Shown piece after piece: positions 1-13,961 of a stretch of DNA of 13,961 bases (the stretch's first letter is position 1; each line of letters begins with the position of its first letter). A program made the translations under genes and the position numbers. This stretch comes from Chlamydiia bacterium (GTDB lineage: Bacteria > Chlamydiota > Chlamydiia > Chlamydiales > Parachlamydiaceae). Under the pieces are notes generated by a model. That model searched no databases. It was not told the origin of the DNA and worked only from the letters and a program-made list of their open reading frames with translations. The stretch lies in the NCBI GenBank assembly GCA_038257035.1, contig JBBSJT010000064.1:1-13961 (forward strand). Direction: 5' to 3'.

Positions 1-252
1 CATACAAGATTAGACTCATCGGTTGATCAAAAAACTCAAGATGCTCTTGTAGTCGGGGCTTTAGAATCTCGAGCTTTATCAGCAAGAGACCGCACAATTT
101 TAGAGCAGCGACTACCTCAAGTTTTAAGTTTTATTGAGCTTGTTTCCCCTGATGCTTTTGAAAAAGACATGATGGAATTATATCAGAATGAAGGGCAAAA
201 TAACATCACTTTTGCACCTAGCAGTAAGCCAAAATTCACCCCGATCTTGTAG
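1..252 (+). CDS. 3' end of a protein-coding gene of unknown function (runs off the left edge)
   Basis: Frame 1 is open from base 1 to TAG at 250-252 (HTRLDSSVDQKTQDALVVGALESR...KPKFTPIL*). No recognisable motif. Confidence 0.65.
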   Translation, partial: HTRLDSSVDQKTQDALVVGALESRALSARDRTILEQRLPQVLSFIELVSPDAFEKDMMELYQNEGQNNITFAPSSKPKFTPIL

Positions 253-417
253 CACCGAAGCTATCACAGCGTGTACCACGAAATAAAATTAGCAAATTTT
301 ATTTCATTTAGTAGCAAAGGATATTGAGCTTTTGCTTTCGCCTGTCGTCGCAGGCTTGCAAACAAATAAAATGCGCCCCCTAAAGATTCAAATAAATATT
401 CAACCATTTTAAAACCA

Positions 418-446
418 TTGACTTACATTACATGAGAATGTATTAT
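418..446 (+). promoter_or_regulatory. Sigma70(sigma66)-type promoter TTGACT-N17-TATTAT
   Basis: TTGACT 418-423, 17-nt spacer, TATTAT 441-446, 30 nt before ATG 477. A taaggt SD-like motif precedes the start. Confidence 0.75.
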
Positions 447-476
447 TAAATAAATAAAAATAGATAAGGTTTTAAA

Positions 477-1763
477 ATGATTAGTAATGTGGTAAGTTAT
501 ATCCCAACTTTTCTAGGGCTTGCATGGAGTGTCACAACAGCTGTTCCGGTTATCGAATGTGCAGTACGCGCCATTTGGCATTTTGGTGAGCTTTCAGCCA
601 ATCGCGCTCAATACCACACTAGCTCTGTGGAAAAAATTTATGCAGAAGAAAAAAATCAATTTATAGAAACTATGAAGGCAGATTTTAATTCTAAACTTCC
701 ATCCTCTTGCTTACCGGATGCCAATCAACCCGATGCTCCTAAATTAAAGCTTAAATTTGTTAATTCTAACGAACTTGTGGTGGATTTGGAAAGCTTTAAA
801 CTTTATTGCGGAACATTTAAAAAATTAGCAGTCGATTATCTTGATGCTCCGGATGCCAAAGAATTTTTAATGCCTTTTCTAGTTAAAAATGATGGAGTTT
901 GCCAAGAAGTTCTAAGAAGCTATTTAATATATAGATCAAACCTCAATTTTTCTGCCCTTGACGATAAAAATTTACTTGAGATGTATGATCTTGCAATGTA
1001 CTTGGACATGCCTGATTTAGAAGCTCAATGCATGCTGACCATTGTTGAGAGATTCATCAAAACAGAATCCCCTATTTTAAAAGATGGGCTTGAAAAATTA
1101 GATCATCACTATAAAAAGGGCTTTAACCGCTTGTTTGGCAACGTTGAAGAATTAAAAACGGGTCATCTTAGCGAAGCTCTTGTCAATCGTTTAAATAATT
1201 ATAACGAAGAAAGATTAGAAGTAATAAAAAATATAGGTAAGACACTAATTTGTGGACTACTCTTTATTCCATTACCTCTTTTTCCTTTGGCTATAAAATA
1301 TATCGCTATTCCTTCGCACCATGCACACCTTGTGGGGATCGCTCGCCTTAATATACGTTGTTGTCAACTTTATTATCCAATGCTTGCGTATATCGCGTTT
1401 TGTTCTATAAATATTAGACAAGGCAATACAGCCAATTTTCTTAGAACTTACCCTGCTGTAAACCGAATAGCCAATATCTATAGGAATGTTGTTCATAGAT
1501 TTTTCACGGGGACAGTAGTTGGCAGAGTTATGTTCGTGACATCATTAGCTATATTTAACGTTATTGAATTTACTGCGACAAAAATTTACAATGGAACTAT
1601 TTTTATTGCTCAAAGCATTATTCAAGCCTCAGGTTTTATTTATAATAAAATCGGTCAGGGAGTTAATAAAATTAGCCAAGAGCTTATGCAGATTCCAACG
1701 ACCGTCACTGCAGGCTTAATCGCTGGTACTGTCCTACTTGTCGCTGCAAAACAATTCGGTTGA
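477..1763 (+). CDS. BTB/POZ(Skp1)-like domain membrane protein, paralog A (candidate host-directed effector)
   Basis: 428 aa. Residues ~89-192 read KLKLKFVNSNELVVDLESFKLYCGTFKKL...NLLEMYDLAMYLDMPDLEAQC, matching the BTB/Skp1 pattern (L-x-x-L-A-x-Y-L-x-I/M-x-x-L-x-x-x-C). Hydrophobic N- and C-terminal segments. Confidence 0.75.
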   Translation: MISNVVSYIPTFLGLAWSVTTAVPVIECAVRAIWHFGELSANRAQYHTSSVEKIYAEEKNQFIETMKADFNSKLPSSCLPDANQPDAPKLKLKFVNSNELVVDLESFKLYCGTFKKLAVDYLDAPDAKEFLMPFLVKNDGVCQEVLRSYLIYRSNLNFSALDDKNLLEMYDLAMYLDMPDLEAQCMLTIVERFIKTESPILKDGLEKLDHHYKKGFNRLFGNVEELKTGHLSEALVNRLNNYNEERLEVIKNIGKTLICGLLFIPLPLFPLAIKYIAIPSHHAHLVGIARLNIRCCQLYYPMLAYIAFCSINIRQGNTANFLRTYPAVNRIANIYRNVVHRFFTGTVVGRVMFVTSLAIFNVIEFTATKIYNGTIFIAQSIIQASGFIYNKIGQGVNKISQELMQIPTTVTAGLIAGTVLLVAAKQFG

Positions 1764-1786
1764 AAACATCAATAAATGACAATTGA

Positions 1787-2012
1787 AAATGCCGGTCTTT
1801 CAGACCTCAATGTTAGGTTTAACCTACCTAGGCCTCTCGCTTCGCTTCGGCCTAGGCTATCACATGACGGTCCTTCGGACCTAAAAGCCTTAAAAACTAC
1901 TATTAATCATTTCTGAGGTCCGAAGGACCGTTATATGATAGCCTAGGCCGAAGCGAAGCGAGAGGCCTAGGTATTAATAGGTGTATTATTGAGGTCTGAA
2001 AGACCGGCATTT
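1787..2012. repeat. REPIN/MITE-like long inverted-repeat element with internal hairpins (family 1)
   Basis: 1787-1811 is the exact reverse complement of 1988-2012 (25 bp). 1825-1882 pairs with 1916-1973 (58 bp, 2 mismatches). Each arm holds hairpins ggtct-ttc-agacc, cctaggcc...ggcctagg and ggtcc-ttc-ggacc. Confidence 0.9.
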
Positions 2013-2083
2013 GCCTTGCCGGGCATGAGGTGTCTCTGTCGACGCTTAAGTGTTTAAATAAATATTCAACAATTTTAAAACCA

Positions 2084-2112
2084 TTGACTTACATTACATG
2101 AGAATGTATTAT
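2084..2112 (+). promoter_or_regulatory. Sigma70(sigma66)-type promoter TTGACT-N17-TATTAT (duplicate)
   Basis: Identical to 418-446, same distance from ATG 2143. Confidence 0.75.
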
Positions 2113-2142
2113 TAAATAAATAAAAATAGATAAGGTTTTAAA

Positions 2143-3366
2143 ATGATTAGTAGTGTGGTAAGTTATATCCCAACTGTTCTTGGACTTGCCTGGAGTGGCA
2201 CAGCAGCCATTCCGGTTATCGAATGCGCGTTGCGCGCCATTTGCCTCTTTGGTGAGCTCTCGGCAAATCGCGCACAATACCATACATGCTCTGTTGAAAA
2301 ACTGTATGTCGAAGAAAAAAATCTATTTATAGAAAGTATAAAAGCAGATTTAAATTCTAAACTTCCATCCTGCTGCTTACCGGATGCCAATCAACCCGAT
2401 GCTCCTAAATTAAAGCTTAAATTTGTTAATTCTGACGATCCTTTGCTTCAAGATAATTTGGATGTTGATCTTGAAGCTTCTAAACTCTTCTGTGGCACTA
2501 TTAAAGATTTCTTAAGCGATAATCTAGGTGCAACAGAATATTTAATACCTTACTTTTCAGAAAAAAATAAAAAGTTCACCGACGATATTTTAAAAAATTA
2601 TTTAACAGATCGATCAAAACTCAATTTGACAAACTTAAATGATGAAGTTCTACTTGAAGTGTATGACCTTGCAAGATGTTTGAACATGCCTGATTTAGAA
2701 GCTAAATGCATGGTGACAATTGTTGAAAAATTCATTAGAACAGAATCAACTGTTCTTAAAGATGGACTTACTGGATTAGACCACCATTATGCAAAGGAAT
2801 TTAACCGCTTATTTGACAATGAGGAGCAATTAAAAACAGGTCACCTTGGTGGAGTTCTTGTCACTAGAAAAAACAATTTTAATGAGGAAAAGGAAAGAGT
2901 TGCTGAAAAAGTTTCAAAGACAGTTGCTTTTGGTTTACTCTTTACTACTATGATTTTTATGCCTTATGTAATGACAATATTTGTATGTAATGTTTCTCCC
3001 ACTATTTCTTCACATATTATATCTAAATTATTTATAAGTTATTTTGGTGGTTATACTCTGTTTTCTGCAAGAATGTTAATCCAGCATGGGGCTGACGTTA
3101 TGCCAACAACGCACCATGTAATTAGTCAAATATACCAAAAATTTATCAATGGAGTGACTAGAATCGGCAATGCTATGATTAACGCTATTGTATTTACCGC
3201 GATAAAAATATACGATGGTACTATTTTTATTGCTCAAAATATTATTCAAGTCTCAGGTTTTATTTATAATAAAGTAGGTCAAGGGCTTCAAAAAATTCCA
3301 ACAGCCGTTACCACAGGCTTAATTGCTAGTACTGTCCTACTCGTCGCTGCAAAACAATTCGGTTGA
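2143..3366 (+). CDS. BTB/POZ(Skp1)-like domain membrane protein, paralog B
   Basis: 407 aa, paralog of 477-1763. Motifs LDVDLEASKLFCGTIKDFL and VLLEVYDLARCLNMPDLEAKC. Hydrophobic termini. Confidence 0.75.
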   Translation: MISSVVSYIPTVLGLAWSGTAAIPVIECALRAICLFGELSANRAQYHTCSVEKLYVEEKNLFIESIKADLNSKLPSCCLPDANQPDAPKLKLKFVNSDDPLLQDNLDVDLEASKLFCGTIKDFLSDNLGATEYLIPYFSEKNKKFTDDILKNYLTDRSKLNLTNLNDEVLLEVYDLARCLNMPDLEAKCMVTIVEKFIRTESTVLKDGLTGLDHHYAKEFNRLFDNEEQLKTGHLGGVLVTRKNNFNEEKERVAEKVSKTVAFGLLFTTMIFMPYVMTIFVCNVSPTISSHIISKLFISYFGGYTLFSARMLIQHGADVMPTTHHVISQIYQKFINGVTRIGNAMINAIVFTAIKIYDGTIFIAQNIIQVSGFIYNKVGQGLQKIPTAVTTGLIASTVLLVAAKQFG

Positions 3367-3415
3367 AAACATCTAGCGTCAATGGTATAAATCACAGTTT
3401 ATAATTTGCAATTAA

Positions 3416-3526
3416 TTTGGAGTGCGGTAACTTGTTACCGCTCTTCCTCCAGCCCGACTTGTCGGGCTCATGTAAATCGACAAGTCGATTTGAACCAAGA
3501 GCGGTGACAAGTCACCGCACTCCAAA
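3416..3526. repeat. REP-like four-hairpin palindromic element with GGAG/CTCC ends (family 2a)
   Basis: tttGGAGtgcgg...ccgcaCTCCaaa. Perfect 8-bp hairpins at 3424-3441 and 3451-3468 (TT loops) and at 3474-3491 and 3501-3518 (AA loops). Confidence 0.9.
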
Positions 3527-3551
3527 ATAGCTGCATTCTCAAAGGTTAATT

Positions 3552-4307
3552 ATGGCGACAGTATGGGCACTTGCAGATTTACATCTCTCTTTTGGCGTTC
3601 CTAATAAAGAAATGGATTTTTTCGGCGCAAATTGGGCCAATTGGACAACAAGAGTTGAAGAGAACTGGAAACGAATTGTTAACGATGAAGATCTTGTATT
3701 AATTGCAGGTGATATCTCTTGGGCAATGCACGTTGCAGAGGCGGTTCCTGATCTTGAATGGATTCACAGACTTCCTGGCACAAAAGTTATCTTAAGAGGT
3801 AATCACGATTACTGGTGGTCCTCGCTTAGCCAAATCCAAAAAATTCTACCTTCCTCTATTCACCTCATTCAAAACAACGCCTTTAACTGGAATAATGTTA
3901 CTATTGGCGGAAGTCGCCTTTGGGATTCGTCCGAGTACAAATTCCAAGAATACATCGATTTTGCTGACAACCCACGAGCCAAAAAAATATTGTCAGTGGA
4001 TAGTAATCAAGTGGAAAGTGATCGTCTATTTGAAAGAGAATTGACAAGATTAGAAACAAGTCTTAAAGCGTTATCAAAAAATGCTGATTTTCGCATTGCC
4101 ATGACTCATTATCCGCCAATCAGTGCCGATTTGCAACCTTCTAAAGCCTCCGCTATGTTAGAAAAATACAATGTGGACGCCTGTGTTTTTGGGCATTTGC
4201 ACAATGTAAAACAAAATATTCCTCTTTTTGGTAAAAAAAATGAGACTACCTATTATTTAACTTCTTGCGATTATTTAAACTTTACGCCTATAAAGATAAT
4301 AAAGTAG
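3552..4307 (+). CDS. Calcineurin-like metallophosphoesterase (CT488/DR1119-like family)
   Basis: All five metal-binding motifs: ADLHL, AGDISWAM, RGNHDYWW, THYPP, FGHLH. Confidence 0.92.
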   Translation: MATVWALADLHLSFGVPNKEMDFFGANWANWTTRVEENWKRIVNDEDLVLIAGDISWAMHVAEAVPDLEWIHRLPGTKVILRGNHDYWWSSLSQIQKILPSSIHLIQNNAFNWNNVTIGGSRLWDSSEYKFQEYIDFADNPRAKKILSVDSNQVESDRLFERELTRLETSLKALSKNADFRIAMTHYPPISADLQPSKASAMLEKYNVDACVFGHLHNVKQNIPLFGKKNETTYYLTSCDYLNFTPIKIIK

Positions 4308-4316
4308 GAGTTTTTA

Positions 4317-5003
4317 ATGAATGCGTCCACCCAAAGACTAGTCCTGATTGGAACTGTCATTTTGATGATTTTATTTGTTTTTGGAAATTATTTCATTAAT
4401 TTCTTTGATCCTGATTCAAGCTACTCCCTTAACACTTCTAACCAACCCTCACTTGGCAACCCCGATTCAATAGTTGAAGTTGTTGTTTTCCAAGACCCTA
4501 CAAGTCTTGATAGCAAAAATTTTAACAACGCGATTTTCCCTAAAATCAAAACAGATTTTATAGATACAAACAAAATCAAGTACATTGTCATACCGGTATC
4601 AAATGAGGCCTCAAGTCCAATAGCTGAAGCCTTGCTTTGCACCTATTACCAGGATGAAAAAACTCAAAATAGCGATCTTTTCTTCAAATTTTTAGATTAT
4701 TTTTATAAGAATCAACCGGCTTCAGGTTCAGAACTCACACAAGAAAACGTTCTTGATATGGCAGTAAAGGCTGATCCTTCCATTCATGTTGACAAAATCA
4801 AAAAATGCATCGAGAGAAAGGTTTATTTTACAATCATTAAGCAAAACAGCGCAGAAGCCAACCGGGTTACAAACAGTACAACTGTCAAGCCACCTCTTTT
4901 TGTTAACGGCATGAAGGTAGATAGCAATTCATTCGAGGCGATCGAAAAAGCCATCAACGATTCCCTCACAACCCCTCCTGCAAAAACCGGTAGAAGATCG
5001 TAG
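4317..5003 (+). CDS. Membrane-anchored DsbA/thioredoxin-fold protein lacking the CxxC active site (SLDS)
   Basis: N-terminal TM, then PSLGNPDSIVEVVVFQDPT-SLDS-KNFNNAIFPKIKTDFIDTNKIKY (DsbA/BdbD-type), AEALLC, and C-terminal PPLFVNG. A GGAG SD precedes the ATG. Confidence 0.85.
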   Translation: MNASTQRLVLIGTVILMILFVFGNYFINFFDPDSSYSLNTSNQPSLGNPDSIVEVVVFQDPTSLDSKNFNNAIFPKIKTDFIDTNKIKYIVIPVSNEASSPIAEALLCTYYQDEKTQNSDLFFKFLDYFYKNQPASGSELTQENVLDMAVKADPSIHVDKIKKCIERKVYFTIIKQNSAEANRVTNSTTVKPPLFVNGMKVDSNSFEAIEKAINDSLTTPPAKTGRRS

Positions 5004-5069
5004 AATAGAGGTTACGTAAGCATTGTTACGTATAAAAACTCTCTTTTTACTCTCTTTTCCTCTCACTTG

Positions 5070-5292
5070 GTAGCCCATACCTAAGTTTGAGGGCATTTAT
5101 GCCCTAAAAATCGCAGGTGTGGGTTAAAAGAATAATAAAAAAAAACTCCTTCAGGAGTTCTTCTCTATTAAAAAAGAGAGGAACTCCTGATGGAGTTAAA
5201 CAATATCTATTATTACCCACACCTGCACGTCTTTAAGTCGCAAGCTCCTTCGCGTTTGGTATGGGCTACATAGAGAGAGGTCCTTTGGACCT
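5070..5292. repeat. REPIN-like nested inverted-repeat element (family 1 relative) between convergent genes; may also act as a terminator
   Basis: 5070-5081 pairs with 5258-5269 and 5113-5124 with 5215-5226 (both perfect 12 bp). 5144-5166 pairs with 5175-5197 (23 bp, 2 mismatches). Hairpin aggtcc-ttt-ggacct at 5278-5292. Confidence 0.85.
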
Positions 5293-5318
5293 TGGCAAAA
5301 TCAACAGTATTTTAAGGG

Positions 5319-6428
5319 TTACCGCCTAGTTAATAGTAATATAACTAGAAGGGTTATCAATTGACTTTGACTTATAGGGGCAGATAATGATGCCAAAGCT
5401 AAGCGTGCGACATTGTGGATACTAATTATAGGAATCGCAACTATGCCAGTCCAACATAGACCTAACACCATTACGTAGCTCACTCTTAAACTGTAAGAAG
5501 TCGCTATCATAGGATTACAATATGTCATAAAATGTACAAGTGCCGGGCCCGCAATGGGAACCATGCTTGCAAATATTAAAATTGCTGCAAATTTAATTTG
5601 ATCTGATATTTCTTTTACAATACTGTTCTTTTTTTGATCCAGTAAAGCGATTCTATCTTTAAACTCTTGATCATAATAATCTTTTTTGAAATTTTTGATA
5701 TCAAAAAGCATCTGCCTGAAACTTTCATCTTGGATATTATATTTCGCGTTATCAAATTGATCAATATCAATTCGGCCATCATCGATGCATTCTTTGACAA
5801 TTCTAACACAGCGTGCTTCTAAATCAGGAATATGAAGAAATTCGGCAAGTTTGTAAAGATCTATAAATTTTTCAAAATTAAGTTTTTGTGATTTAAGATG
5901 ATCCAAATTAAACAAATCTTTATTTGTTAAATAAGATTTTAATAAATGAAAGCTGTTTTCTGTAAAAATTTCAGATGGAATAATACAAGTTGGGGTTTGA
6001 TTATCTGCATCCGAGCCAATTTTATTATTAAAAGCATCAAAATCTTGGGAAAGATCCTTATACTGGAGAGAATAATCTTGGAACACTTCCCTATCTACTT
6101 CGAAAGATTGATTTCCAAACGTAAGCTTCAATTTTGAATTGGGTTTATTTAAGTCATAAGTGCATGAATCAGGAAGCTTAGAATTTTCAGTTGTCTCAAT
6201 ATGTTTTAAAAGGCAGTCCCGGCCAATTTTATATTCCGGTGAAGTTGAGAAGGATTTTTGCGGCCTAAAGGCAACTTTTGCATAAAAATATTGAGAACGG
6301 TTATGAAGGAATTGTCCGGTTGCAAAAATGGCTCTAATAGCTGCCTCTATGGCAGGAATCAATGTTGAGAAGCTTAAGCCTCCAGCAATAAGAACGGGTG
6401 TTGATAATTGTAATACTGTATTAATCAT
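5319..6428 (-). CDS. BTB/POZ-like domain membrane protein, paralog C
   Basis: 369 aa. KLKLTFGNQSFEVDREVFQDYS...FTENSFHLLKSYL...FIDLYKLAEFLHIPDLEARC is a strong BTB pattern. Shares IPxIExAxRAI, SKLPxSC and PDLEAxC with paralogs A/B. Hydrophobic C-terminus. Confidence 0.8.
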   Translation of the reverse strand: MINTVLQLSTPVLIAGGLSFSTLIPAIEAAIRAIFATGQFLHNRSQYFYAKVAFRPQKSFSTSPEYKIGRDCLLKHIETTENSKLPDSCTYDLNKPNSKLKLTFGNQSFEVDREVFQDYSLQYKDLSQDFDAFNNKIGSDADNQTPTCIIPSEIFTENSFHLLKSYLTNKDLFNLDHLKSQKLNFEKFIDLYKLAEFLHIPDLEARCVRIVKECIDDGRIDIDQFDNAKYNIQDESFRQMLFDIKNFKKDYYDQEFKDRIALLDQKKNSIVKEISDQIKFAAILIFASMVPIAGPALVHFMTYCNPMIATSYSLRVSYVMVLGLCWTGIVAIPIISIHNVARLALASLSAPISQSQLITLLVILLLTRR

Positions 6429-6468
6429 AAATTTACTTTTGAATTTCTTTTTTTTATCTTTTTTATTT

Positions 6469-7731
6469 TTATCTAATTAATGTAGCTGCAAGAGCAGCTA
6501 TTATCAAAATGGAACCGGTGACCTTTAATATAGGTGTTGCAACGAACACAAAGACTTTAAATGCTGTGCTTAATATTAAGAAGGCAACCTTTATAGGAAT
6601 TAAGGCAATTGAAGCCACCATTGCCACCTGAGTGCTCCTTAATGCCAATGTTAAACCGTAAACGCCGGCACCTAAAGCTATAACAGGTGAGGCCATAAGG
6701 AAAAACAACGATATGGCTATAATGATGTCCGAAGAAATTGAAGAAATTTGGGTTGCCTTCTTATAATGATTATCACCACTAGATTCAATAAAGCGAACAA
6801 CGTGAGTATAAATCGGGCCGACAATTGGCACAAGACTGTGACGAATATTTCTTAATGCAAAATGAATTTGTCCTTTAATTTTTTCTTCAATGCTATCTTT
6901 AGCTAATTCTATTGCAATTATTTTAGCTCTAAATTCTGTAACATTATATGTCTTCTTATAATTTTTTACAAAAACTAGCAAATTTTTAAAATTTTTATCT
7001 TCTAAATAATATTTCTCATTATATTTTCCATCTTTCAATGTGTTATCAAATTGGTCTATGTCAATTAAACCGGAATCTATAAAATCGTTGATAGTTTTAA
7101 CGCAACGTGCTTCTAAATCAGGAATTTGAAGATAGACGGCAAGCTTATAGAGGTCTATGAATTTTTCCAAATCAAGTTTTTTTAATTTGGATGATTTATT
7201 ATCAAACAGCGCTTTATTAGTTAAATAATAAGTTAACAAATGAAAGCTTCCTTCGGTAAAAATTACAGGTACAATACATTGTTTAGTTTGATCATCTGCA
7301 TCTGCACCAATTTCTTTATTATAAGCATCAAAATCTTCAGACATCTCCTTATAGTAAACTGAATACTTTTTGAATGAATCTTTATCGAGATCAAAGGTAC
7401 AATCAGTTTTACCCTGATAATGCAAAATTAGTTTAGAATTTGGTTTATTTATATCATATGTACATGAATCGGGAAGCTCAGAATCCTCTATATCTTTCTT
7501 AATTTTAGCAATATATACCAAGCCAATATTTTTATAATTTGTTGTAGTTGTAAAAGATTTTGATGGCGAAAAGTTCCATTTTGTATAAGAACAGTGACAA
7601 CGATTAATCATAAGTTGGCCCGTTCCAACGATAGCCCGCAACGCGGCTTCAATAGCAGGAATCAATGTTGTACAGGCCATTCCTCCAATAATAAGTGTGG
7701 GAGTAGATAATTGTAACACTGTATTAATCAT
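6469..7731 (-). CDS. BTB/POZ-like domain membrane protein, paralog D
   Basis: Start moved from the track's TTG 7752 to ATG 7731: MINTVLQLST matches paralog C and an AAAAGG SD lies upstream. Motif FIDLYKLAVYLQIPDLEARC. Long hydrophobic C-terminal region. Confidence 0.8.
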   Translation of the reverse strand: MINTVLQLSTPTLIIGGMACTTLIPAIEAALRAIVGTGQLMINRCHCSYTKWNFSPSKSFTTTTNYKNIGLVYIAKIKKDIEDSELPDSCTYDINKPNSKLILHYQGKTDCTFDLDKDSFKKYSVYYKEMSEDFDAYNKEIGADADDQTKQCIVPVIFTEGSFHLLTYYLTNKALFDNKSSKLKKLDLEKFIDLYKLAVYLQIPDLEARCVKTINDFIDSGLIDIDQFDNTLKDGKYNEKYYLEDKNFKNLLVFVKNYKKTYNVTEFRAKIIAIELAKDSIEEKIKGQIHFALRNIRHSLVPIVGPIYTHVVRFIESSGDNHYKKATQISSISSDIIIAISLFFLMASPVIALGAGVYGLTLALRSTQVAMVASIALIPIKVAFLILSTAFKVFVFVATPILKVTGSILIIAALAATLIR

Positions 7732-7754
7732 ATAAATAAACCTTTTGAACAATC

Positions 7755-7783
7755 ATTATAAAAAAGTCATTTATTAAAGTCAA
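7755..7783 (-). promoter_or_regulatory. Sigma70(sigma66)-type promoter TTGACT-N17-TATAAT for paralogs D and C
   Basis: On the minus strand, TTGACT at 7783-7778, 17-nt spacer, TATAAT at 7760-7755. Confidence 0.8.
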
Positions 7784-7881
7784 ACTGTATAGAATAATCG
7801 AATTTAGGAATTCATAATGCCTGTTTTTCAAATAATAATTTGCTTTTCTCTCTACTATATGATAAAACATGGTGTTATTAT

Positions 7882-7992
7882 TGTAGCGTAGGTTTTAACC
7901 TGCGCATGTTTCAACGGGTTTTAACCCGTTGTATTAGTTAGATAGCAGGTTAAAACCTGCTAAAACAAGCGCAGGCTAAAGCCTACGCTACA
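7882..7992. repeat. REP-like four-hairpin palindromic element with GTAG/CTAC ends (family 2b)
   Basis: tGTAGcgtagg...cctacgCTACa. 9-bp hairpins at 7886-7905 and 7912-7931 (TT loops) and at 7943-7962 and 7969-7988 (AA loops). Confidence 0.9.
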
Positions 7993-8001
7993 GGGTAAAC
8001 G

Positions 8002-9090
8002 ATGACTATTGACTTTCAAGCTTTTTTTATTCTACTTCCATTCTTAGGATTGGTCTGGACTTTTTACAAATGGTCCAAGAGATTTAATGAGCCCTCCCTT
8101 CTTTTTCCTGATCTTGTCCTATTTTCAACGAGTGAACCCATAAGCTTTAAACAAAAGTATGCCTTCTTACCAAAAGCTTGTTTATGGATTGCATTTACTC
8201 TATTAGCTTTGAGCTTCATTGACCCTCACTATTTCGTCATAAAAGATGGAGCCATTGATGACTCTCAAAAATTTGAAGGTATTGCCATTTACCTGATTGC
8301 TGATGAGTCTGGCTCCATGATGGGGGATGTGAACGCAAGAGACGTTACCGGCAGCTATTCTAAAATGAGAAAAATTGATCTATTAAAAAAAGTGACTGTC
8401 CCTTTCATTAAAAATAGACCCGATGATTTGATTGGCCTTGTCTCTTTTGCAAGGACTGCGGATGTTCGTTCTCCTCTTACACTTGATCATCAAACCGTGA
8501 TCGATGAAATTTTGGCACTTGCCCCATCTATAAATGAGGAACAGGGTGGAACAGCCATTGGTTTTGCCGTTTTTAAAACAGTAAATTTGATTGTTGCTAC
8601 CAAACATTTTGCAAATGATCTGATAAAGGAAGGCAAGCCCGCCTATGAAATTAAAAACGCGATCATTGTCTTAATAACGGATGGTGTTCAAAATGTAAAT
8701 CCAAGAGACGTAAATGACAAATTCCGTTCCATGGATGTAACGGAAGCAGCTAAATATGCAAAAGAAAACAATGTTCGCTTTTACGCCATTAACATCGACC
8801 CTTCCATTTTGACATCAAAATTTACACCCGAAAGAAACTTAATGCAGCGTGTCACAGAATCTACCGGGGGTCATTTTTATGTGATCGATAATTCAACTTC
8901 GCTTTCCAAAATTTATGATGAGATCAATAAAATTGAAAAAAGTGAAATTCAAAACATTCCCCTTTCAAAAGCTGAACAACCGGAACTTTATCAACGTGTT
9001 TCATTTTTCCCCTATCTTCTTCTTACTTCTTTAAGCTTTCTTTTTCTTTATGTTTTATTAGAAACATTTATTTTTAAGAGGGTTCCATGA
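8002..9090 (+). CDS. batA: BatA-like vWA domain membrane protein
   Basis: N-terminal TMs, MIDAS DESGSM, RPDDLIGLVSFA...SPLTLDH, GTAIG, LITDG, IYDEINKIEKS, C-terminal TM. First gene of the bat cluster. Confidence 0.88.
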   Translation: MTIDFQAFFILLPFLGLVWTFYKWSKRFNEPSLLFPDLVLFSTSEPISFKQKYAFLPKACLWIAFTLLALSFIDPHYFVIKDGAIDDSQKFEGIAIYLIADESGSMMGDVNARDVTGSYSKMRKIDLLKKVTVPFIKNRPDDLIGLVSFARTADVRSPLTLDHQTVIDEILALAPSINEEQGGTAIGFAVFKTVNLIVATKHFANDLIKEGKPAYEIKNAIIVLITDGVQNVNPRDVNDKFRSMDVTEAAKYAKENNVRFYAINIDPSILTSKFTPERNLMQRVTESTGGHFYVIDNSTSLSKIYDEINKIEKSEIQNIPLSKAEQPELYQRVSFFPYLLLTSLSFLFLYVLLETFIFKRVP

Positions 9091-11348
9091 ACTCTGCCGA
9101 TTTTCATTATGCTATTCCTAAATTTGTCACTTTAATTTTTTTCATTTTCCCTATTTTGAGCCTATTTTGGTCGCTTTATGTCTATCGCAAAAAAGCACTC
9201 CATCTCTTTTCATCAAAGAAGAATTCGGCAAAACTCATCATTGCAAGAAGTAACAATCTTTCTAAAGTTATTGCTTTCTCCATAATTTGGATTTTGATCG
9301 TTTTGGCTTTAATGCAACCCAAAGGAGATGGTTATTATCCCGAGAGTTTAAAAAACCAGACTGAAACGACCAAATTAAAGGCACATGACTTAATTTTCAT
9401 GGTCGATGCATCAGCCTCAATGGCCATACAAGATGATCCGCTTGGTAAATCGCGTTTGGATCTTGCAAAAGAAATTGCAGATGAAATTATATCCAATTTA
9501 AAGGGAGAAAGCGCATCCCTTTATGCCTTTACATCGACTGCAACCAAAATATCTCCGCAAACACTCGATCTTTTTTTTGTCCGGATGATGCTAAGAGGCA
9601 TTTCCATAAATGAAGGTGGTCTTGCAGGCACTGATTTTCTTGCCACACTCCAAAACATTAAGGAGAAGCATTTTAAATCCACTACACATAAGCTTACAAC
9701 CCTTGTTATTTTATCTGATGGGCAAGACACCTTGCTAGAGACATTAACAGGTAATGAAGAAACTTTACGCCTCAATCAAATACTCAATTTAATTGGTGAT
9801 CCAAAAAAATTAAATTTGCGTGTTTTCACAATTGGGATCGGTAAAACAACTCCACAAGTTATCCCTGGGGTGCAATATCAAGGAAAACCCGTCTATTCTA
9901 AACTGGAAGCCAAGCTTTTAAAGCAATTAAGTGAAAAGGGAGAAGGCTTCTATTTTGATACCAATCAACTCTCCCCTCTTGAAATTTCAAAACAAATTTT
10001 GGAAAAGATAAATCAGGACAATGCCTTTTTAAAAACTGAAAAAAAAGATCCAAAAGAATCTTTGATTTACCGTCAATATTTTCAGGTTCTGCTTGCCCTC
10101 GCTCTTATACTTTTAATTTTTTACATTCTATTTCCAAATATTTCAATCTTGAGCATATTTTTGTGCTGCTTTATTATACCTTTAAGTGCCAATGAAGAAG
10201 ATTTAAAAAAAGCTGAAAATTATGTACAAGCTTCTAATTACGGCCAAGCTCTAAACATTTACCAAAACATGTTAAAAGATAAAAATCTGCCAAACTTTGA
10301 AAAAGCTATTGTCAAATATAACCAAGCAACGATTCATCTTTTTCAAAATGAATTGAAAGAAGCGATTGAAATATATGAATCTATACCACTTAAGGGCTCA
10401 CCTCCGCCCTTTTTAAAGCGCCGCATTTATACAAACCTTGCCCTTGCAAAATTTAACTTAAGTTTAGCAGAATCAATAGATGATAAAACTGAGTTAGAAA
10501 AAAAAGTTTATCTTTTAAAATCTGCCCAAGATGTTTTGGAAAAAGCTAGAAAAGCTGAATGCGAAAATCAAGCTCTAAAGGGAAGGCAGAAATGTATAGA
10601 GCCCCATGATTTGATTGAGCTTGAAATGCTTATTGAAAATGAACTGCAAAGCCTTTCCAAGCATGTAAATGTCGATGAGCTTTATAATACAAGTCGTACA
10701 AATATTAACGGAGAGTCTCTTGAAACTCTGCGTAAAAAAATAGACATCCTTGAATCGGATGCCTTGAAACTAAATCCTAAAGACTTAAAAGAATTAAACG
10801 CCCTCCTTTTAAAAGCAATTGAGGCAGAAGAACAAGCATTGATGATCACAAGGTTTTTAAGCCGCATTGAAAATCCTTTGCCTGATGCAGTGGAGCTTTT
10901 AAATGTAACACAGCAAAAAACAATCAAAATTGCCGATCATTATTTAGATTCTTTAAATAATCTGACACAACAATCTTTTAGAATTTTTGGGAAATGTCAA
11001 AAAAAACCATGGAATGAAATAGTCCCCTTGTATAATAAAGGATATGAAGCGGCAATTATAGCTTTAAAATTGATCGGTGAAAATTTAGAACAAGCATCAA
11101 TAAAACAAGAGGAAACGATTAAATTTTGGAAAGAAATTCTAAGGGTTAACGATAAAGACCAATCACAAAAAGAACAAGATAAACTTGAACCTGATACTGA
11201 AGAAAATAAAACTGATGCGGATCATGCTAAAAGCCGCCAAGAAAAAAGCGAAAGAGCTTTACAACTTTTACAAGAGATGCAAATGTCAGATAAACAACAA
11301 AACAATGTGCCCGTACAACTAAAAAAACAAGTTGATAAACCATGGTAA
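9087..11348 (+). CDS. batB: BatB-like vWA domain fused to a BatC-like TPR/coiled region
   Basis: ATGA overlap with batA. LALMQP, MIDAS DASASM, SRLDLAK, GTD, LSDG, then TM segments, TPR-like helices (YGQALNIYQ, YNQA...EAIEIYE) and a C-terminal DKPW. Confidence 0.82.
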   Translation: MNSADFHYAIPKFVTLIFFIFPILSLFWSLYVYRKKALHLFSSKKNSAKLIIARSNNLSKVIAFSIIWILIVLALMQPKGDGYYPESLKNQTETTKLKAHDLIFMVDASASMAIQDDPLGKSRLDLAKEIADEIISNLKGESASLYAFTSTATKISPQTLDLFFVRMMLRGISINEGGLAGTDFLATLQNIKEKHFKSTTHKLTTLVILSDGQDTLLETLTGNEETLRLNQILNLIGDPKKLNLRVFTIGIGKTTPQVIPGVQYQGKPVYSKLEAKLLKQLSEKGEGFYFDTNQLSPLEISKQILEKINQDNAFLKTEKKDPKESLIYRQYFQVLLALALILLIFYILFPNISILSIFLCCFIIPLSANEEDLKKAENYVQASNYGQALNIYQNMLKDKNLPNFEKAIVKYNQATIHLFQNELKEAIEIYESIPLKGSPPPFLKRRIYTNLALAKFNLSLAESIDDKTELEKKVYLLKSAQDVLEKARKAECENQALKGRQKCIEPHDLIELEMLIENELQSLSKHVNVDELYNTSRTNINGESLETLRKKIDILESDALKLNPKDLKELNALLLKAIEAEEQALMITRFLSRIENPLPDAVELLNVTQQKTIKIADHYLDSLNNLTQQSFRIFGKCQKKPWNEIVPLYNKGYEAAIIALKLIGENLEQASIKQEETIKFWKEILRVNDKDQSQKEQDKLEPDTEENKTDADHAKSRQEKSERALQLLQEMQMSDKQQNNVPVQLKKQVDKPW

Positions 11349-13120
11349 GATTGCTTCTCTTATTTATGCTATTTACATTTAATTTGGCAGCTCAAGACCT
11401 TGGAAGGGTTATTGTCACTTCCGAAATGAATTACACGCAGTTAATTACAGGCAACCCTCTAAGCGGTACTGTCACAATCACTCATGATAAGACTCTGAAA
11501 ATTGAGCCTAAATCCTTTAAGGTGGGTACTAAACCTCTTAAAGTGAAATTTTTAAATGATGTTGTGATTTCAGAATCTTCTCCACTGATCATTTCCATTT
11601 ATAGCTTCGAAATTCCGGCGTTATCGAAGGGTTTACATATCTTACCGGAAATTTCAGTAAGTGTCGGGGGAAAAACTTATAAATCTTACTCCACTACATT
11701 TGAAGTTTTTGACCAAGAGACGGCTCCACAACCAACACAACCGATACCCCAGGCCACAACACAACCTTCTAGTCCAAACAGGAATCCTGCAGCTACACCG
11801 GTTACCCCACAACCTCCTATCGTAACGGGCCCTTCTATTATTCCAGATACAACCCTATCTCTTGAAACCAAAGTGGATGGTCCCAAACAATTATATCCCG
11901 GTCAGGAAATTACTGTTACTTACAGATTTATTTATAAAGGTCACATTGAGCTTATAAAGGAGTCATTGCCATTATTGGAATTTCCCGGGCTAAAGAAGGT
12001 AGGAGATAAGGTAACCAAAGATTACATGGAAAACGATTTAAATGTTTCTGAATTTTCCCAAAAGTTTACAGCTGAAAATTCTGGAATTTTTCCTTCCGGC
12101 CCATCTATTGTCGAGGGTCGTGCCTATCAGGAAACAGCGGGAAAAAGAATCTATGCAACTACAACTCTAAAATCTGAAAACCCTCCTGTAATTATTGAGG
12201 TTCTGCCCTTTCCAAAGGCTGATAGGCCGGCAAGCTTTAATGGTTCGCTTGGAAGTTACACTTTCAAGGCTAGTTTAAAGGGTAAAAATACATTTACTCC
12301 CGGAGAAAAAATTGTCCTTTTGCTTGAGCTTGTCGGCGATCCTGCATTTTTACCTACAGCGAAGGCTCCTGACCTTTGCTGTCAGCCACGTTTTAGCGGA
12401 AATTTTAAAGCTAGTGATCTTCCTCCCATCAGCACCATTATCGGAAATACAAAACAATTTTTAGTCGATCTTATACCGTTATCTTCTACACTGACAGAAA
12501 TACCACCTATAGAATTTTCCTCTTTTGATCCTACCCTTGGCAAATTCCTAATTTCAAAAAGTCCCGCCATCCCTATTGTCCTGAATACAACAACTACACC
12601 GAATACATCGATTGATCAAGATGAGGAAATACCTGCGATTAGCGATGAAGTTCTTAAAACTCCAAGCCCGATCGAGATTTCGGCACTTTTTCCTCTAACA
12701 AAATCAGATTTATACAATTCTTATTTAGCATCGTTTTGGAATCTTTTATTTATTCCGGTTTTTGTTGTTTTGTTAATTACTCAGCATCACTTAAAAGAAG
12801 AAGATATTTTTAAACCTGCCCTTAAAGAAACCCCTAGTGAAGAGCTTTTTAAAAGTGCTTTGAGTCAGGAGGCAAATTCTGCAGAGTTTTACAAACAGCT
12901 TGAACAATCCTTCATGACAGCTTTAAAAGAGAAAGGGGTGATTGAATCTGTTGAAATTGCACCGGAGAATTTGGAAAAAACAGGGTTAGCAGGCGATGTC
13001 CGCATCTTTTTAACAAGACTTGAAGAGGTGCGCTTTTCAGGGATAAAAAGCTATAATTTGGCAATTATTTCTTCTGCAAAAGAACTTTATCAAAAGATTA
13101 CAGGAATTACGATTTCATGA
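11342..13120 (+). CDS. batD: BatD-like protein
   Basis: Signal peptide, beta-rich domains, P/T/Q linker, IEVLPFP..RPASFNGSLGSY and EIPPIEFSSFDP motifs, C-terminal TM. Overlaps the batB stop. Confidence 0.82.
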   Translation: MVRLLLLFMLFTFNLAAQDLGRVIVTSEMNYTQLITGNPLSGTVTITHDKTLKIEPKSFKVGTKPLKVKFLNDVVISESSPLIISIYSFEIPALSKGLHILPEISVSVGGKTYKSYSTTFEVFDQETAPQPTQPIPQATTQPSSPNRNPAATPVTPQPPIVTGPSIIPDTTLSLETKVDGPKQLYPGQEITVTYRFIYKGHIELIKESLPLLEFPGLKKVGDKVTKDYMENDLNVSEFSQKFTAENSGIFPSGPSIVEGRAYQETAGKRIYATTTLKSENPPVIIEVLPFPKADRPASFNGSLGSYTFKASLKGKNTFTPGEKIVLLLELVGDPAFLPTAKAPDLCCQPRFSGNFKASDLPPISTIIGNTKQFLVDLIPLSSTLTEIPPIEFSSFDPTLGKFLISKSPAIPIVLNTTTTPNTSIDQDEEIPAISDEVLKTPSPIEISALFPLTKSDLYNSYLASFWNLLFIPVFVVLLITQHHLKEEDIFKPALKETPSEELFKSALSQEANSAEFYKQLEQSFMTALKEKGVIESVEIAPENLEKTGLAGDVRIFLTRLEEVRFSGIKSYNLAIISSAKELYQKITGITIS

Positions 13121-13914
13121 AAATTAATCACCCTCTTATTTGGATTGGCATTGGAGTCTCTATTATTATTGCCATCTATTTTTTGGTTTCATCTTTAAGC
13201 ACTGTGGATCAAGACCTCATTCTTGCAGAAGCAAATTATAAAAAAGCTGAAACAGCAACCACTCTTAGCGAGCGTGAAGAGGGCTTTAACCAATCACTTC
13301 AAATTTATAAGAAACTTGAAAAAGATTACTCACCAACCCTTGGCAATGGAAAACTCTATTATAATATAGCTAATACATATTTTCAGCTTGGTCAATACCC
13401 TCTTGCTGTAGCTTATTATTTGCGTGCCAAAACTTTAATGCCAAATAATGAAAAGTTAGAACTTAATTTGAAAATCACAAAGAACAAACTAGGGACAGAG
13501 AGTGTAAAAAAAGCTTCTATTTTTGATAAGATTTTCTTTTTTCATAACTTTACAATGCCTCAAAAACTACAAGCCCTTTTTGTTTTATCAACGCTAGCGT
13601 TTATTTTAGGTTCTTGCTTCTTCTGGTACCCTTTTCATGGGCTAAAAACAATCACATTTATTGTCACTGCAGCATTATTGATTCTTCTTTTAAGTCTTTT
13701 TTATAGCTACTATATAGCTCCATCAGTTGGCGTGATCTTAAAAGCAAACGAGCTTTATCAAGATGCCGGAACACAGTATTCAAAAGTATTGAGTTCACCA
13801 TTAATTCCAGGGACAGAAGTTGATGTAATTGGGGGGTCGGGAAAATGGCTAAAAATCAAAACTGCAGACGGTGTTGTAGGCTACATCCCTTATGATTCCA
13901 TTCTGATCATCTGA
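13117..13914 (+). CDS. batE: BatE-like TPR + SH3-like domain membrane protein
   Basis: ATGA overlap with batD. TPR LYYNIANTYFQLGQYPLAVAYYLRAKTLMP, two TMs, SH3b-like PGTEVDVIGGSGKWLKIKTADGVVGYIP. Confidence 0.82.
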   Translation: MKINHPLIWIGIGVSIIIAIYFLVSSLSTVDQDLILAEANYKKAETATTLSEREEGFNQSLQIYKKLEKDYSPTLGNGKLYYNIANTYFQLGQYPLAVAYYLRAKTLMPNNEKLELNLKITKNKLGTESVKKASIFDKIFFFHNFTMPQKLQALFVLSTLAFILGSCFFWYPFHGLKTITFIVTAALLILLLSLFYSYYIAPSVGVILKANELYQDAGTQYSKVLSSPLIPGTEVDVIGGSGKWLKIKTADGVVGYIPYDSILII

Positions 13915-13924
13915 GACGTGTTTA

Positions 13925-13951
13925 ACCAAAGAGAACACAGAGATCACAGAG
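13925..13951 (+). repeat. Three imperfect 9-bp tandem units (accaaagag aacacagag atcacagag)
   Basis: Read directly, 10 nt after the batE stop. The element may continue beyond the window. Confidence 0.6.
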
Positions 13952-13961
13952 GAAGAATTAG

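Follow-up and report, generated by a model that had tools for sequence, protein, structure and literature searches.

Four chlamydial paralogs with a predicted BTB/POZ-fold domain set between hydrophobic segments

We analyzed positions 1–13,961 of the forward strand of contig JBBSJT010000064.1 (assembly GCA_038257035.1), hereafter the window, from the 2.37-Mb, 210-contig metagenome-assembled genome (MAG) of a member of the Parachlamydiaceae. It encodes four paralogous proteins, A to D, whose central domain is, on structural grounds, a predicted member of the BTB/POZ fold superfamily and is flanked on both sides by hydrophobic segments. Chlamydial BTB-box effector candidates are already known; what is new here is a BTB-fold domain placed between hydrophobic segments. 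We suggest that A–D may be lineage-specific, tandemly expanding, host-directed membrane proteins of a Parachlamydiaceae symbiont, each carrying one putative eukaryote-type BTB/POZ-fold domain of the Skp1/BTB-adaptor type between an N-terminal hydrophobic or amphipathic module and C-terminal segments.

An earlier reading of the letters of the window (the sequence-only reading) had proposed four paralogs with common motifs, and both the open reading frames (ORFs) and the alignment of A–D agree with it. All four proteins have a hydrophobic, uncharged N-terminus, a P-x-I-E-x-A-x-R-A-I helix, an S-K/E-L-P-x-S/C-C cap, the central domain, and C-terminal hydrophobic segments. A and B share 60% identity, C and D 52% over 315 aa (E 6e-109), and A is 24–25% identical to C and D; a profile built from the four matches the source genome at exactly these 4 places. 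The columns invariant in all four fall into an N-terminal block (P24, I26, E27, A29, R31, A32, I33), a cap block (S72, L74, P75, C78, D81, N83, P85), and a block at the end of the domain (Y170, L172, A173, L176, P179, D180, L181, E182, A183, C185). Two of the motifs first proposed needed amendment: the P-x-I-E-x-A-x-R-A-I part of IPxIExAxRAI is invariant, but A reads VPVIE rather than IPxIE; and in LYxLAxxLxxPDLEAxC the tyrosine and the downstream columns are invariant, but the preceding residue is M, V, L, and L in the four proteins, so that "LY" varies. The rate of nonsynonymous versus synonymous substitution (dN/dS) is 0.41 between A and B and 0.35 between C and D, values that show purifying selection rather than decay. 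For A and B, residues 1–50 are the most constrained part (0.15) and the C-terminal third gives 0.62. Selection on the paralogs is thus purifying but relaxed, the genes being moderately constrained. The GC content of C and D (0.31–0.34, against 0.35–0.40) makes them the most AT-rich part of the window.

The assignment of the fold comes mainly from the domain of A. Residues 66–230, modeled alone with AlphaFold2 from a 25-sequence alignment, gave a predicted local distance difference test (pLDDT) score of 83 and a predicted template modeling (pTM) score of 0.78. The elements of the model run strand, strand, helix, helix, strand, helix, helix, helix, and are followed by two more helices; DSSP places the first eight, in model numbering, at 24–28 and 35–38 (strands), 39–45 and 47–56 (helices), 64–66 (strand), and 76–86, 98–110, and 114–131 (helices). 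Three strands and five helices in that order define the core of the BTB superfamily. The sequence-only reading had claimed a BTB/Skp1-like domain and had named AlphaFold with Foldseek as one way to check it; with the A domain as query against the PDB, all Foldseek matches listed were BTB or Skp1 chains (best E 9.8e-4, probability 1.00). VIA comparison gave Z ≥ 8 for 226 of 1000 chains, with Z 10.1 for the BTB domain of ZBTB8A (root-mean-square deviation [rmsd] 3.0 Å, 109 aligned) and 10.0 for yeast Skp1 (5an3_D; rmsd 2.4 Å, 96 aligned). In a Foldseek-independent search of 48,161 representative PDB chains, 23 chains reached Z ≥ 8, and 47 of the 50 matches listed belonged by title to the BTB superfamily (BTB-ZF, Kelch-BTB, SPOP, Skp1, KCTD, Elongin C, NPR1).

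Sequence profiles point in the same direction. The family profile matched 31 PDB sequences at E ≤ 10, 29 of them Skp1 or KBTBD4 and in register across the whole domain; the best E-values were 9.6e-4 for Skp1 and 0.006 for KBTBD4, and only one match had E < 0.001. The profile also matches chlamydial proteins that pair the domain with leucine-rich repeats (LRRs) or ankyrin repeats, and in the protein of locus L040 the matched stretch overlaps an above-threshold Pfam BTB match (24.2 bits). Models, structural comparisons, and profile matches together bear out the BTB/Skp1-like assignment. A scan of A–D against NCBIfam returned no family, and Pfam BTB matches at E ≤ 1 occur in only 2 of the 25 aligned family members. 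An ESM Atlas search (scores 0.76–0.79, with BTB clusters in two of the three best rows) yielded weak leads that we did not use as evidence.

The signals for the subtype of the domain are split: Skp1 gives the better sequence scores, at about 20% identity, and the BTB + 3-box adaptors of Cul3 align over more residues (132–145). Because the Z scores are tied, we left the choice between a BTB-Cul3 and a Skp1 type undecided. The helices that follow the core in the A model align with BTB + 3-box constructs (SPOP, 141 aa, Z 9.2; KEAP1-Cul3, 132 aa, Z 8.6), the pLDDT of these helices being only 53–68. Alignments to Skp1 over model residues 23–165, which take in the region of the F-box-binding helices H7–H8, gave Z 9.2–9.8 at rmsd 4.2–6.5 Å, again across this low-confidence region. 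A complex predicted between the A domain and the F-box region of a genomic ORF (L016, residues 20–100) scored 0.00; the controls were not folded and the fold of the partner is uncertain, so the result speaks neither way.

As the sequence-only reading had noted, no repeats accompany the domain: the Pfam scan of A–D detected no LRR, TPR, ankyrin, or other joined domain, and no substrate-recognition domain (Kelch, MATH, zinc finger, LRR, or ankyrin) as found in Cul3 adaptors. Because A–D miss Pfam BTB and have no substrate domain, they should be filed neither as Pfam BTB proteins nor as classical Cul3 adaptors.

Hydrophobic segments, called with Kyte-Doolittle 19-residue windows, are present at both the N- and the C-terminal side of the domain in all four paralogs. 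No charged residue comes before E27 or E28 in A–D, and the first one lies at position 24–29 in 16 of the 23 family members examined. When the N-terminal module was searched in the proteins of the source genome at E ≤ 1, only the four paralogs were found; the module is therefore not a leader common to other effector families. We also considered a Sec signal peptide at this end and rejected it, as an informal judgement, given that the segment is conserved and has no positively charged n-region. C-terminal to the domain, beyond a helical linker, lie two to four further hydrophobic segments, as the sequence-only reading had described. In C they include a bilobed pair (residues 277–302 and 313–341, 10 residues apart), with a similar pair in the short relatives P0010–P0012; in A and B they are spread over about 170 residues and the bilobed pair is less clear. 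The last segment ends 0–4 residues from the C-terminus in all four paralogs, often followed by basic residues (RR in C), so that the C-terminal ends look like tail anchors. The proposal that the domain sits between membrane segments as in Inc proteins holds for the flanking hydrophobic segments, but the likeness to Inc proteins is imperfect, with a stretch that begins at residue 5 and a bilobed pair clear in C and less so in A and B.

The family is rare. A word index over 5.8 billion clustered proteins returned 7 matches, A and B included, and a profile search of 1.84 billion proteins found 19 representatives at E ≤ 1e-3. Among 41 related genomes including the source, two match, the other being that of another Parachlamydiaceae MAG (G011), in the domain only. 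Across the phylum, 9 of 401 genomes match including the source, all in the same order; the other eight match in the domain only, and the full architecture was found only in the source genome. Close homologs, whose wide occurrence in free-living bacteria would have spoken against the sequence-only reading, are thus not widespread. No family match was found in two genomes of the same genus (86% and 96% complete), and a pattern search for related loci in genome contigs gave 218 pattern matches, none of them confirmed. Relatives also occur in tandem pairs on one contig (P0010/P0011 and P0016/P0018). The family is accessory: it has a restricted and patchy distribution, duplicates in tandem, and evolves fast.

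The relatives combine the domain with other parts in several ways. In G011, tandem genes (L006/L008/L012; G011:C2, about 1411852–1417726), and likewise P0022 and P0024, encode a ubiquitin-like domain (Pfam ubiquitin E 0.005, below the cut-off) followed by one or two divergent BTB-fold domains. The G011 tandem proteins are without hydrophobic segments, and P0024 adds an N-terminal hydrophobic anchor. This arrangement recalls Elongin B fused to Elongin C. A second architecture (L037/L046 of G085, L042 of G143, and P0025; 466–477 aa) carries the BTB-fold domain at its C-terminus, behind a middle region and four to six N-terminal hydrophobic segments. It occurs in tandem pairs in another chlamydial family, where one copy matches Pfam BTB at E 0.008. 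In P0014, P0015, P0017, P0021, and the gene at L032 150–1655, an insertion of 35–40 residues carries a second copy of the "xIPDxFSxxxF" strand-helix unit found in the BTB core and looks like an internal duplication within the domain.

Features of the genome speak for a host-directed character of the family. The source MAG carries a homolog of SctV/FHIPEP and 56 F-box-like (PF12937) matches at E ≤ 0.01 on many contigs, several of them in tandem (e.g., on contigs C29 and C87); 26 of the 56 exceed the Pfam cut-off, three of these only jointly with neighboring matches in frame. Comparable F-box expansions have been reported in Neochlamydia and Protochlamydia. There are also three BTB matches in the genome, one of them in a 490-aa ORF with a leucine-rich C-terminal half (BTB-LRR-like). 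The sequence-only reading had pointed to expanded BTB and F-box families in amoeba-infecting chlamydiae, and the source, a Parachlamydiaceae member with expanded F-box-like genes and BTB-LRR genes, agrees with it. According to the main text of Domman et al. (2014; PMC4209131), BTB-box proteins of Parachlamydiaceae are type III effector candidates and the only prokaryotic reservoir of BTB domains.

We propose the following mechanism. A–D would be exported, probably by the type III system, and inserted into a host-facing membrane, which could be the inclusion membrane or, by way of the tail-anchor-like end, that of a host organelle. The BTB-fold domain would then be displayed to the host cytosol and could engage a host BTB-fold partner, which might be another BTB protein or, as for Skp1, Elongin C, and BTB adaptors, the N-terminus of a cullin. 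As an outcome, part of a cullin-RING ligase (CRL) might be concentrated or sequestered at that membrane. We put export, insertion into a host-facing membrane, and presentation of the domain to the cytosol at an even chance, and regard recruitment of a cullin as doubtful. In its more specific form, the proposal makes A–D a bacterial effector class not recognized before, one that imitates, from within a membrane, the CRL adaptor layer formed by Skp1, Elongin C, and BTB proteins. Such effectors would nucleate host cullins directly at the vacuole or at an organelle membrane or sequester them there, or else would act there as docking sites for F-box or BC-box proteins, the bacterium's large F-box repertoire among them; this form we consider rather unlikely. 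Under it, chlamydiae would have put one divergent BTB-fold domain to use in several ways, A–D standing beside the ubiquitin-like + BTB fusions and the proteins with an N-terminal multi-pass membrane part and a C-terminal BTB-fold domain.

Several observations weigh against this proposal. Regarding the domain, the Foldseek E-values are only about 1e-3, with TM-scores of 0.45–0.6. None of A–D reaches the Pfam BTB (PF00651) cut-off of 20.5 bits, the full-length proteins having no BTB match at E ≤ 1 and the A domain alone scoring 14.0 bits (E 0.061). The family aligns in register with the source genome's own BTB-LRR protein, but weakly (hhalign probability 2%, E 0.022). Cul3-binding BTB domains carry a hydrophobic-x-Glu motif; by eye, no such motif is conserved in the helix-strand loop of A–D. 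Regarding the membrane parts, the full-length AlphaFold2 model of A (pLDDT 52) is confident at residues 70–210 and falls below 50 outside residues 50–224, and is therefore uninformative on their arrangement. In typical Inc proteins a soluble signal region precedes the hydrophobic part; here the hydrophobic stretch begins at residue 5, so that there is hardly space for a separate secretion signal in front. Moreover, since E27 and R31 are invariant in its second half, the N-terminal module may form an amphipathic instead of a transmembrane helix. On an additive hydrophobicity scale, which is crude and without position weighting, the C-terminal segments of C and D score –0.7 to +0.8, like ordinary inner-membrane anchors, and their hydrophobicity would fit retention in the bacterial membrane. 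In favor of the proposal, the hydrophobic segments of A and B reach +0.7 to +4.9 on this scale, compared with mostly –3.0 to +0.2 for the anchors of the neighboring Bat and thioredoxin proteins, and are thus less hydrophobic. PMC6110835 describes the hydrophobicity of secreted transmembrane effectors as sub-threshold; the moderate values of A and B fit this rule, in a partial and weak way. Finally, the argument for export is drawn wholly from genomic context, and the absence of the family from two congeners means that it cannot be essential for the lifestyle.

One alternative is that A–D are envelope proteins of the bacterium itself and stay in its inner membrane. The BTB fold would then serve only for oligomerization in the cytoplasm or periplasm, like the T1 domain of Kv channels and KCTD proteins, and there would be no host target. 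The several hydrophobic segments, with those of C and D as hydrophobic as bona fide anchors nearby, would suit such proteins, as would the KCTD/T1-type domains among the structural matches (Z 6.2–7.1), the envelope-related neighbors (a DsbA-like thioredoxin and a Bat operon), and a case for secretion made from context. However, the prokaryotic BTB fold is, in the main text of PMC4209131, essentially confined to Parachlamydiaceae effector candidates; in relatives the domain is joined to ubiquitin-like, LRR, or ankyrin modules; and patchy, tandem, fast-evolving genes have the profile of accessory genes. The flanking genes are conserved without paralogs in a congener, the N-terminus is without the positive charges usual for Sec/SRP-targeted anchors, and no ion-channel signature is apparent by eye. 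We consider this alternative unlikely. A K+ channel with a T1 domain was itself rejected, as no selectivity-filter-like motif was seen by eye.

Two other alternatives differ from the proposed mechanism in what the domain does. A–D could be secreted membrane effectors that recruit no cullin, the domain instead hetero-oligomerizing with host BTB proteins, or self-associating to cluster the effector and remodel or tether membranes. The best structural matches do include BTB-ZF domains that are dimeric or polymeric (ZBTB8A, Z 9.8–10.1; BCL6; PLZF), mixed oligomers of four paralogs are conceivable, and, having no substrate-recognition repeat, A–D are without the second half of a classical adaptor. 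Yet the SKLPxSC segment ahead of the first strand packs on its own domain in the model (pLDDT about 94) and is not obviously a swapped dimer strand, and Skp1 and the BTB + 3-box Cul3 adaptors score equally (Z 8.6–10.0), with 130–140 residues aligned for the 3-box constructs; we regard this alternative as quite unlikely. Alternatively, the domain could be a membrane-anchored mimic of Skp1 or Elongin C onto which F-box or BC-box proteins dock at the membrane, whether these come from the host or from the bacterium's large F-box repertoire. Skp1 provides the best profile matches (E 9.6e-4, about 20% identity versus 10–14% for BTB-ZF and Kelch proteins), in the hidden Markov model alignment the variable loop ahead of the third strand is acidic, as is the corresponding loop of Skp1, the genome offers 56 F-box-like matches, and the G011 relatives join a ubiquitin-like domain to the BTB-fold domain in a manner reminiscent of Elongin B + Elongin C. 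Nevertheless, the region of the F-box-binding C-terminal helices is poorly conserved and modeled at a pLDDT of 53–68, alignments that span these helices have an rmsd of 4.2–6.5 Å, Elongin C reaches only Z 5.9, and the family is absent from the congeners searched. This last alternative appears very improbable.

Compared with known systems, A–D resemble the PEX1 BTB-LRR proteins of Protochlamydia (Domman et al. 2014) in belonging to Parachlamydiaceae, in their fold superfamily, and in a tandem expansion of birth-and-death style. PEX1 proteins, as their main description has it, are soluble, with an N-terminal BTB domain recognizable by Pfam and C-terminal LRRs; A–D, in contrast, have a central domain missed by Pfam BTB, hydrophobic flanks, and no repeats, the PEX1 layout of N-terminal BTB followed by LRRs being absent since Pfam finds no LRR in them. 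The word "transmembrane" does not occur in the main text of that paper (PMC4209131), whose supplements might list further architectures. With Inc proteins, A–D share hydrophobic, hairpin-like segments in an otherwise soluble, lineage-specific protein, including the bilobed pair of C and of the short relatives; unlike Inc proteins, they are hydrophobic at both ends and have an N-terminal stretch from residue 5 with a conserved charged motif, and a Pfam scan of A–D showed no similarity to any Inc family. With Skp1 and Elongin C, they share the BTB/POZ fold, the best profile matches (to Skp1), an acidic variable loop, and an alignment over the whole BTB part of Skp1. They differ from Skp1 in an identity of about 20%, in F-box-binding helices that are not clearly conserved, in being bacterial, and in their predicted membrane anchoring. 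The BTB + 3-box Cul3 adaptors (vaccinia A55, PDB 6i2m; SPOP; KEAP1; KLHL) align with both the core and the following helices (132–145 residues, Z 8.6–9.2), and A55 is a precedent for a BTB adaptor encoded by a pathogen. In contrast to these adaptors, A–D have no Kelch, MATH, or other substrate domain; and identity is only 5–12%.

The nearest functional precedent is found among deubiquitinases. According to PMC13720258, a 2026 review of bacterial ubiquitin effectors, Cdu1 of C. trachomatis, and SnVTD/SnOTU of Simkania with their predicted transmembrane domains, are membrane-anchored deubiquitinases at the pathogen vacuole. As we propose for A–D, a module of the ubiquitin pathway is there anchored by transmembrane segments; those proteins are enzymes, whereas the module of A–D would be a non-catalytic BTB-fold adaptor domain. 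In the same text, F-box proteins are the only CRL adaptors, and "BTB" has 0 occurrences. Our literature search found no description of a bacterial BTB-fold domain combined with membrane segments, which agrees with the earlier impression that the architecture had not been described.

If A–D do face the host from a membrane and bind a cullin or F-box partner, pathogens would copy the adaptor layer itself (Skp1/BTB) and fix it to a membrane. What is known so far of how bacteria hijack cullin-RING ligases concerns mainly F-box, U-box/RING, and novel E3 effectors. The chlamydial BTB repertoire would also extend beyond Pfam-based surveys, because none of A–D passes the Pfam BTB threshold. A practical limit is that the source is an uncultured MAG and that few lineages carry the family.

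The positions of the four genes and of the features around them are given in Table 1.

Table 1. Coordinates of the paralogs, their parts, and adjacent features in the window
Feature	Position (nt)	Strand	Description
Paralog A	477-1763	+	ORF, 428 aa
A, residues 5-46	489..614	+	Uncharged hydrophobic stretch 5-23, then helix with P-x-I-E-x-A-x-R-A-I (23-33)
A, residues 72-197	690..1067	+	SKLPSSC cap and predicted BTB/POZ-fold core, ending in MPDLEAQC and its helix
A, residues 253-424	1233..1748	+	Three or four moderately hydrophobic segments, the last ending 4 residues before the C-terminus (tail-anchor look)
Paralog B	2143-3366	+	ORF, 407 aa; predicted BTB-fold region residues 72-201 (nt 2356-2745); C-terminal hydrophobic region nt 2920-3351
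Paralog C	5319-6428	-	ORF, 369 aa; predicted BTB-fold region residues 83-219 (nt 5772-6182); C-terminal hydrophobic region nt 5328-5600
Paralog D	6469-7731	-	420 aa from ATG 7731; predicted BTB-fold region residues 84-222 (nt 7066-7482); C-terminal hydrophobic region nt 6472-6753
A upstream region	387..476	+	Promoter-like TTGACT-17-TATTAT at 418-446 (10/12 matches)
B upstream region	2052..2142	+	Duplicate of the A region; same hexamers TTGACT-17-TATTAT at 2084-2112
Promoter-like site upstream of D	7755..7783	-	TTGACT-17-TATAAT, 11/12 matches, best in region
Metallophosphoesterase	3552-4307	+	Pfam; conserved core pair 3552..5003, outside the family
Thioredoxin-fold protein (DsbA-like)	4317-5003	+	Pfam; second gene of the conserved core pair

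The span from the start of A to the start of D (477–7731) encloses two unrelated genes, those for the metallophosphoesterase and the thioredoxin-fold protein. In a congener (G001) the order is GlgC, phosphoesterase, thioredoxin, BatA, BatB, BatD, and TPR-SH3, with no paralogs in between: GlgC abuts the phosphoesterase, and the coding matches of thioredoxin and BatA are 27 bp apart. The other congener (G002) has the same GlgC-phosphoesterase-thioredoxin arrangement up to the contig end. Relative to G001, the window has A and B in place of GlgC upstream of the phosphoesterase, and C and D between thioredoxin and BatA. By gene order, pairs of paralogs are inserted on both sides of a conserved gene pair. 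Because the flanking genes are kept without paralogs in the congener, we interpret the adjacency to envelope genes as insertion and not as an operon. No tRNA gene was found at the insertion sites. In metagenome contigs from closer relatives (L032 and L034), family genes likewise occupy both positions. The A/B-type gene of L032 is a single copy, with one more family member upstream, and the one region ahead of it matches the regions ahead of both A and B in the window; A and B are therefore a tandem duplication that included the promoter-like site. These sites lie 30–31 nt upstream of the start codons with identical hexamers, and since they fall within the duplicated unit, each copy kept its own putative promoter. 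For D, a longer form beginning at TTG 7752 is unlikely, because the promoter-like site ends just upstream of that codon.

In the spacer between B and the phosphoesterase (3413–3530) lies a nested palindromic element of ~118 bp with outer arms ttggagtgcggt / accgcactccaa. Counting both strands and half-elements, the genome has 65 matches to it, spread over more than 25 contigs. Copies flank the BTB-LRR gene on contig C10 and adjoin family genes in L032 and L034, and the element looks like a dispersed repeat of the miniature inverted-repeat transposable element (MITE) or repetitive extragenic palindromic (REP) type associated with accessory genes. The first 252 nt of the window (1–252) belong to the 3' end of a gene that is complete in L032 (1744–4374), where it encodes an 876-aa protein without a Pfam match. 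A hydrophobic stretch of ~40 residues near residue 165 of this protein has an Inc-type bilobed look, and the protein is possibly another membrane effector of the same island. At the other end, positions 8002–13914 hold a Bat-like operon. It encodes two membrane proteins with VWA domains that resemble BatA and BatB, TPR being present in the second; a BatD-like protein, which at 22.7 bits falls slightly short of the Pfam BatD cut-off; and a TPR + SH3 membrane protein. The operon is conserved and contiguous in G001.

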